A DNA stretch of 64,000 nt, taken from NCBI GenBank assembly GCA_964016885.1, contig OZ024741.1, positions 90,768,001 through 90,832,000 on the forward strand, given 5' to 3'. The stretch's first letter is position 1, and each line of letters opens with the position of its first letter. A model generated the notes under the pieces. The model saw only the letters and a list, made by a program, of their open reading frames with translations, made no database searches and had not been told where the DNA came from. The position numbers and the translations under genes are program-made. Shown here piece by piece: positions 5,227 through 5,477 of the stretch. The DNA comes from Eledone cirrhosa (Eukaryota).

Positions 5227-5477
5227 GAATCTGTTTCACTGTACAAGATGTGACAACTGAAGAAAATTGCAAATGTAAAATGTGTCCAGCTTCGATTGAT
5301 GCCCGAGCTCACTGTGAATGTTGTGTATGGCATTATCTGGGGAAAAGACAATCGATTAATTCCAATGAAGAACTTGACAATTACGTTTTGCAATTAGCGA
5401 CAGATAAAACCACACAACTTGAACTAACAAAACGTCATTTCGTTATGACAAGAATGCGAACCAGGGCAGATTATTAA
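5227..5477 (+). CDS. Candidate terminal exon of a secreted Cys-rich amidated peptide precursor (neuropeptide- or toxin-like)
   Basis: Strong acceptor (ctttgctcttttttctctttcag|G, phase 1). Encodes ICFTVQDVTTEENCKCKMCPASIDARAHCECCVWHYL-GKR-QSINSNEELDNYVLQLATDKTTQLELT-KR-HFVMTRMRTRADY*. AATAAA at 5656 and 5660. Upstream exon not located. Confidence 0.6.

Follow-up and report, generated by a model that had tools for sequence, protein, structure and literature searches.

The stretch analysed in the present study (the window) comprises 64,000 nucleotides (nt) of the genome of the octopus Eledone cirrhosa (assembly GCA_964016885.1, contig OZ024741.1, positions 90,768,001 to 90,832,000 of the forward strand), which lies on chromosome C2. 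Window positions 5227-5477 hold coding exon 2 of a gene that probably encodes the precursor of a secreted, amidated peptide with six cysteines. The exon begins in phase 1 and is an open frame of 251 nt including its TAA stop; its product reads C-x-C-x2-C-x9-C-x-CC-VWHYL-GKR, followed by an acidic spacer, a second KR, a tail and the stop. The features of the gene within the window are the following, with the basis of each in brackets.

1-5226, plus strand: 3' part of a phase-1 intron of 26,816 nt (exon positions, donor and acceptor)
5197-5226, plus strand: polypyrimidine tract and CAG splice acceptor (sequence; pyrimidines at 19 of the 20 bases before CAG)
5227-5258, plus strand: end of the predicted signal peptide, G-I-C-F-T-V-Q-D-V-T-T (hydropathy; cleavage after V-T-T inferred)
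5259-5339, plus strand: predicted mature peptide of 27 residues with six cysteines, EENCKCKMCPASIDARAHCECCVWHYL-amide (conservation, mass calculation)
5340-5348, plus strand: Gly-Lys-Arg, amide donor and dibasic convertase site (invariant in all seven rows of two alignments)
5349-5435, plus strand: acidic spacer of 27 amino acids (aa) and second dibasic site KR at 5430-5435 (kept in the Octopus model)
5436-5477, plus strand: basic tail of 13 residues, HFVMTRMRTRADY, and TAA stop at 5475-5477 (one residue differs from the Octopus model)
5494, 5656 and 5730 (to 5735), plus strand: candidate polyadenylation signals AATAAA (sequence)

The original prediction, made from the letters of the window, had listed the acceptor, the phase-1 junction, the cysteine frame, the GKR, the acidic spacer, the KR, the stop and an AATAAA, and each was found in its place. 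In octopuses the basic tail may be released as a second peptide.

The signal-peptide exon is absent from the window, and a genome-wide pattern allowing two mismatches returned four unrelated matches only. It was located by tblastn with residues 1-21 of an Octopus gene model (described below), which in the 200 kb upstream of the window gave one match at E 4.8e-10 and a next best at E 0.002. Coding exon 1 occupies C2:90,746,350-90,746,410 (61 nt, MKSNVMEKMCKRLNFFCFLIG), approximately 21.6 kb upstream of window base 1, and ends in the phase-1 donor G|GTGAGT, which fits the acceptor of exon 2. Joined, the two exons form an intact frame of 312 nt encoding a precursor of 103 aa. The expectation that a signal-peptide exon with a phase-1 donor would lie upstream of the window was thus borne out.

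Use of the acceptor at 5226/5227, also predicted, agrees with one contig from a related organism (organism A; run X1, from one study, its RNA nature being a guess). Letters 1-67 of a 186-nt X1 contig align to exon 1, and its loose end consists of five letters followed by GAATC, the start of exon 2. An X1 contig of equal length and depth covers window positions 5219-5340 with its letters 65-186, and the loose letters at its start match exon 1. These two alignments are read as a single 186-nt contig that would bridge the exon junction; an intron-less join of exons is not expected from DNA. A second X1 contig follows the frame to 5477, with similarity ending exactly behind the stop, and an X1 contig also carries AATAAA within the first 30 letters behind the stop. 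For the E. cirrhosa stretch itself no RNA data set was listed as a match, which has no bearing on its expression.

The complete motif occurs once in 264 kb (the window and the 200 kb upstream) and in none of 30 window shuffles that permuted two-base blocks. The exon is single copy in the 3.0-Gb genome: its sole DNA match is itself, in keeping with the earlier claim that it is not a member of a repeat family, and a protein search of the genome returned itself and one match at E 8. A partial four-cysteine pattern was unspecific genome-wide (16 matches versus 11 in the control), and therefore the case rests on conservation and splicing rather than on the pattern alone. Patterns designed for paralogues were swamped by microsatellites, and nine of the 15 other four-cysteine matches were translated, none showing the family frame. 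One paralogue candidate (CECQFIHYLGK) was rejected as a chance match, as it continues in GKS, is without the N-terminal cysteines and adjoins a microsatellite.

Among 5.8 billion proteins the only close homologue is a 103-aa 'uncharacterized' model common to Octopus vulgaris (CAI9727903.1) and O. sinensis (XP_036362128.1, LOC118764974), here called P0001. The two precursors are identical at 87 of 103 positions, with 26 of 27 residues shared in the predicted peptide and 22 of 31 in the signal. A phmmer search of 1.84 billion representative sequences gave five matches at E <=0.001, namely P0001 and four unnamed proteins (P0002-P0005; E 1.4e-6 to 1e-3). The latter are all full length, and in each a hydrophobic leader precedes the first cysteine by 6-11 residues. 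Their overall identity is 20-34%, with nine invariant alignment columns, which are the six cysteines and G-K-R; the cysteines and GKR are thus kept in relatives, as had been anticipated. A profile search of the 5.8 billion proteins (855 candidates scored), which was insensitive in that it missed P0004, added a fragment (P0011) and a tail-only relative (P0012). The family frame is C-x-C-x2(4)-C-x9-C-x-CC-x5-amide; GKR is invariant in 7/7 alignment rows, position -4 is aromatic in 7/7 cores, and position -3 is His in 6/7. The spacer and second KR of the octopus precursor are not alignable to the distant homologues. P0002 and P0011 share KMCP/MCP...CCVWH with the octopus precursor, and these two sequences may come from other cephalopods.

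The comparison with X1 points in the same direction, with three changed sites in the 90 nt encoding the peptide and GKR versus 17 in the 98 nt of the spacer (Fisher p 0.002). Third codon positions account for 13 of the 22 listed changes (p 0.012; changes near the contig ends are not among the 22). From the aligned sequences we conclude that the precursor belongs to a conserved family.

The precursor leader has the hydrophobic core FCFLIGICFTV with a mean Kyte-Doolittle hydropathy of 2.66, compared with 1.65-2.62 in five homologues (by hydropathy only). Oxidised and amidated, the predicted peptide would have a mass of approximately 3137 Da, with a net charge near -1 and an isoelectric point (pI) of approximately 6. 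An AlphaFold model based on the seven-row alignment has an extended N-terminal arm and a helix at residues 16-27 (predicted local distance difference test, pLDDT, 77; predicted template modelling score, pTM, 0.42). Fold searches with this pLDDT-77 model gave no match at E 0.001 (best Z 2.2), which is not evidence of a new fold. A profile search of the PDB found only flavivirus NS5, at E above 1. Pfam has no family for the exon and nothing near cut-off for six homologues, P0004 touching Toxin_30 at E 0.96. In the ESM Atlas every feature neighbour that has a name is a neuropeptide precursor (neuropeptide S, orexin, CCAP, GnRH and others), with scores of 0.78-0.87; scores below 0.9 are rated as a lead only.

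Taken from sequence, these properties suggest that the gene product is probably an amidated neuropeptide or hormone of an unnamed family. We favour this over a venom or antimicrobial role because the gene is single copy, its mature region is conserved and the peptide is near neutral in charge. Processing of prohormones by convertase cleavage, trimming and amidation is established biology. Signal peptidase would free the N-terminus near E32 (V-T-T/E), a PC1/PC2-type convertase would cut after K60-R61, carboxypeptidase E would trim the C-terminal basic residues, and PAM would turn G59 into the C-terminal amide, with three disulfides expected to form in the 27-residue peptide. Judging from the arm and C-terminal helix of the AlphaFold model, the exposed aromatic-His-x-x-amide end may be the receptor-activating part, and the receptor would most likely be a rhodopsin-type G protein-coupled receptor (GPCR) on the cell surface.

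Several points weigh against this interpretation. The RNA nature of X1 is a guess, and the bridged junction is a single contig from one study of another organism. The distant matches are individually weak, and cysteine-rich queries can attract chance matches. At 31 aa the leader is long, and the polar residues QDVTT precede the predicted cleavage point; the signal call is by hydropathy, and the leader of P0003 is only moderately hydrophobic (1.65). Finally, toxins and antimicrobials too may be secreted, amidated and rich in cysteines.

Compatible with a neuropeptide is the suggestion that the gene arose as an ancient paralogue of HFAamide, an orphan neuropeptide of lophotrochozoans, and has acquired a third disulfide, an origin that is possible though somewhat doubtful. 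The two precursors share a layout of signal, one cysteine-bridged amidated peptide directly after it, GKR and a variable tail, and the C-terminal ends agree weakly in register as C-x-C-x3-H-aromatic-x-amide, the octopus peptide with HYL and HFAamide with H-F-[AT]. In contrast, the HFAamide frame, as read from phoronid, nemertean and octopod sequences, has four cysteines (C-x3-C-x8-C-x-C) where the octopus peptide has six with other spacing. Counted back from GKR, the cysteines lie at -24, -22, -19, -9, -7 and -6 in the family and at -22, -18, -9 and -7 in HFAamide, with His at -3 in both. A pattern derived from the HFAamide end finds both genes among its three genome matches, the third being a chance match, although the control also gave three. 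An ungapped anchored score is significant at p ~0.001 against full shuffles and at p 0.008-0.02 with the cysteines fixed; the score itself is 15-17, compared with 65-76 within the family, and the comparison was chosen after the resemblance had been noticed. Further arguments against a paralogue are an hhalign probability of 4-5% (P ~0.01, GKR included), a single coding exon in octopus HFAamide compared with two in the gene under study, and a single-sequence HFAamide model that suggests a hairpin rather than a helix, both models being weak. Orthology is excluded, as the genome has a separate canonical HFAamide gene on C4.

That canonical HFAamide precursor is a single exon at C4 ~144,932,834-144,933,439 (plus strand), consisting of a signal and FDVRKFCKSRCAVGRGGNLCRCNAFHFA-GKR. 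Its homologues in O. bimaculoides and Argonauta are labelled uncharacterized or hypothetical.

A second proposal also compatible with a neuropeptide is that the gene is the molluscan counterpart of Platynereis QRIamide and/or encodes the ligand of the trissin-type receptor, which we regard as unlikely. Trissin comprises approximately 28 residues and, like the octopus peptide, ends in CC...YL; its spacing (C-x2-C-x3-C-x3-C-x7-CC) would set it apart, and it is not known to be amidated. When searched in the genome this spacing finds microsatellites only (37 matches versus 40 in the control), a result that weakly favours the octopus peptide as the ligand, since an intron or divergence would hide a trissin. 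Trissin has six cysteines in three bridges, as many cysteines as the octopus peptide, and has a GPCR of its own (PMC3510462, in excerpt). QRIamide likewise begins with C-x-C-x2-C after the signal and ends in C-E-C-C-V-aromatic...GKR (PMC3890597, supplement file 9, in excerpt), but it has ten cysteines, a longer loop and seven residues after CC. By eye only the first three and last three cysteines match, and the FENRI-amide end belongs to QRIamide alone. The six cysteines of the octopus peptide exclude it as a ten-cysteine QRIamide. In the available parts of the literature QRIamide is known as Platynereis-specific only. Its middle section, C-x2-C-G-x3-C-x3-C (same file, in excerpt), resembles that trissin spacing, and no publication linking the two was found in the literature searched.

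Trissin-type receptors are listed for molluscs (O. vulgaris XP_029641905, scallop and oyster), nemerteans and brachiopods, and none for annelids or phoronids, in the available part of one survey (PMC8557429); their absence from annelids in that part makes a pairing of QRIamide with the receptor less likely. The octopus genome has a trissin-type receptor orthologue on the same chromosome as the peptide gene, with three minus-strand exons (C2:87.43, 87.24 and 87.21 Mb) that extend from the first transmembrane segment to the C-terminus and with receptor motifs that match once each. Its distance from the peptide gene is 3.3-3.5 Mb (0.24% under random placement), and no other of the 149 scored 7tm_1 matches falls within 3.6 Mb (147 of 3231 candidates scored). 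One would not expect a ligand gene to lie beside that of its receptor, however, and C2 is rich in GPCR matches, so this proximity has little weight. The receptor gene itself (C2:87,210,959-87,431,496, minus strand) spans approximately 220 kb, of which its first intron takes up roughly 195 kb, and the third intracellular loop of its product is long. Elsewhere on C2, at least 15 single-exon matches to rhodopsin-type GPCRs are crowded together at 147.7-149.0 Mb and form an expanded tandem family.

A broader view, distinctly improbable in our estimation, would make the octopus precursor the founding member of an overlooked lophotrochozoan family and the ligand of the orphan molluscan trissin-type GPCR, with HFAamide, QRIamide and trissin as branches of one old cysteine-bridged lineage. 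Other small cysteine-rich secreted peptides of lophotrochozoans resemble the octopus peptide in general character but were rejected as relatives. The CCWamide/agatoxin-like peptide has eight cysteines at the C-terminus of its precursor after a propeptide (PMC8557429, in excerpt; Platynereis sequence), and CLCCY and Platynereis CCRFamide have other cysteine spacings and ends (RF-amide for CCRFamide). The original prediction had called for comparison with CCWamide and CCRFamide, and by its cysteine frame the octopus peptide is distinct from CCWamide and from the Platynereis form of CCRFamide.

Among alternative roles, we consider it improbable that the secreted peptide serves defence or paracrine signalling in non-neural tissue (as an antimicrobial, haemocyte, egg-coat or epithelial signal) by way of the same processing route. 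The same doubt has been raised for trissin (PMC3510462, in excerpt) and the oyster CCCGS peptides (PMC8398477, in excerpt), and in the oyster the levels of CCWamide and HFAamide are low in ganglia but rise in digestive gland or larvae (PMC8398477, in excerpt). The octopus peptide, however, is single copy, strongly conserved and, with its pI of ~6, not cationic, and this is unlike most antimicrobial families.

Less probable still is a salivary (venom) peptide, that is, a disulfide-rich amidated toxin of the posterior salivary gland, possibly a recruited neuropeptide. In its size, its six cysteines and its amidation the peptide would resemble peptide toxins in general; cephalopod salivary glands express 27 superfamilies without assigned function (10.64898/2026.02.02.703354, in excerpt), and in cone snails neuropeptides, among them HFAamide, have been recruited as toxins (PMC13542836, in excerpt). 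Against this role stand the single copy of the gene, the predicted net charge near -1 and the finding of no toxin family for it in Pfam or the PDB, with P0004 alone touching Toxin_30 as noted. In addition, its mature region is the most conserved part, while cone-snail mimics diverge in the toxin-coding region (same source, in excerpt). Of the two roles offered by the original prediction, neuropeptide or salivary toxin, the sequence evidence would therefore favour the former and disfavour the latter.

Lastly, a chance open frame, pseudo-exon or repeat fragment is scarcely credible, for although the exon lies amid microsatellites and mobile elements and short cysteine patterns are common in the genome, this reading is largely refuted by the matching upstream exon, the bridged junction, the gene models in two species, the third-position bias, the distant homologues and the single copy.

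The original prediction had considered this to be possibly the only host gene of the window. Judged by eye, the open frames of at least 150 aa, the size class covered by the survey, have the appearance of repeats or mobile elements. One of these lies in the intron of the gene.

2-1998, minus strand: 5' part of a frame-broken Helitron (Rep/helicase), antisense in the intron (Pfam matches)

The Helitron matches PF14214 (Helitron_like_N) at 2-376 with E 1.2e-5, below the curated cut-off, and PF21107 (STPR) at 358-1998 with E 5.9e-28, and it runs approximately 2.9 kb upstream of the window, with continuing frames at -2851..-52. Exon 1 lies upstream of it, and the Helitron is therefore intronic and antisense, flanked by exons 1 and 2, as had been conjectured. 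Its STPR repeats correspond to a 69-nt tandem unit at 1175-1483, at the N-terminal end. Reverse-transcriptase-like remnants of the long interspersed nuclear element (LINE) or Penelope type were seen by eye in translations of window positions 16154-18512, 13604-14674, 26018-26800 and 44481-44975. Further upstream, at C2 ~90,648,000-90,671,000 (window -120,000 to -96,900), four head-to-tail units of approximately 6 kb resemble non-long-terminal-repeat (non-LTR) retroelements; their near-identical frames of approximately 700 and 1200 aa point either to recent tandem duplication or to an artefact of the assembly.

The exon had been put forward as novel, and this holds with one qualification: a conserved family without a name was found, although the gene model already exists at NCBI for two Octopus species as 'uncharacterized'. 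Neither the accessions nor CCVWHY are mentioned in the literature searched. A motif search of supplement passages of PMC8557429, PMC6425005 and PMC8398477, covering the first matches per term in files where line breaks may split motifs, found no family members. That the family has already been named elsewhere we consider rather unlikely.

The class of mechanism (prohormone, convertase, amidation) is ordinary. Should the product be a salivary peptide instead, its disulfide frame would be one without a match in Pfam or the PDB. The neuropeptides of molluscs and annelids have been surveyed many times. As a conserved precursor family absent from the surveys searched, it is an addition to these, and the 27-residue peptide is synthesisable. 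The trissin-type receptor of molluscs, nemerteans and brachiopods has no ligand named in the available parts of the surveys, and the octopus peptide is a candidate for that ligand.
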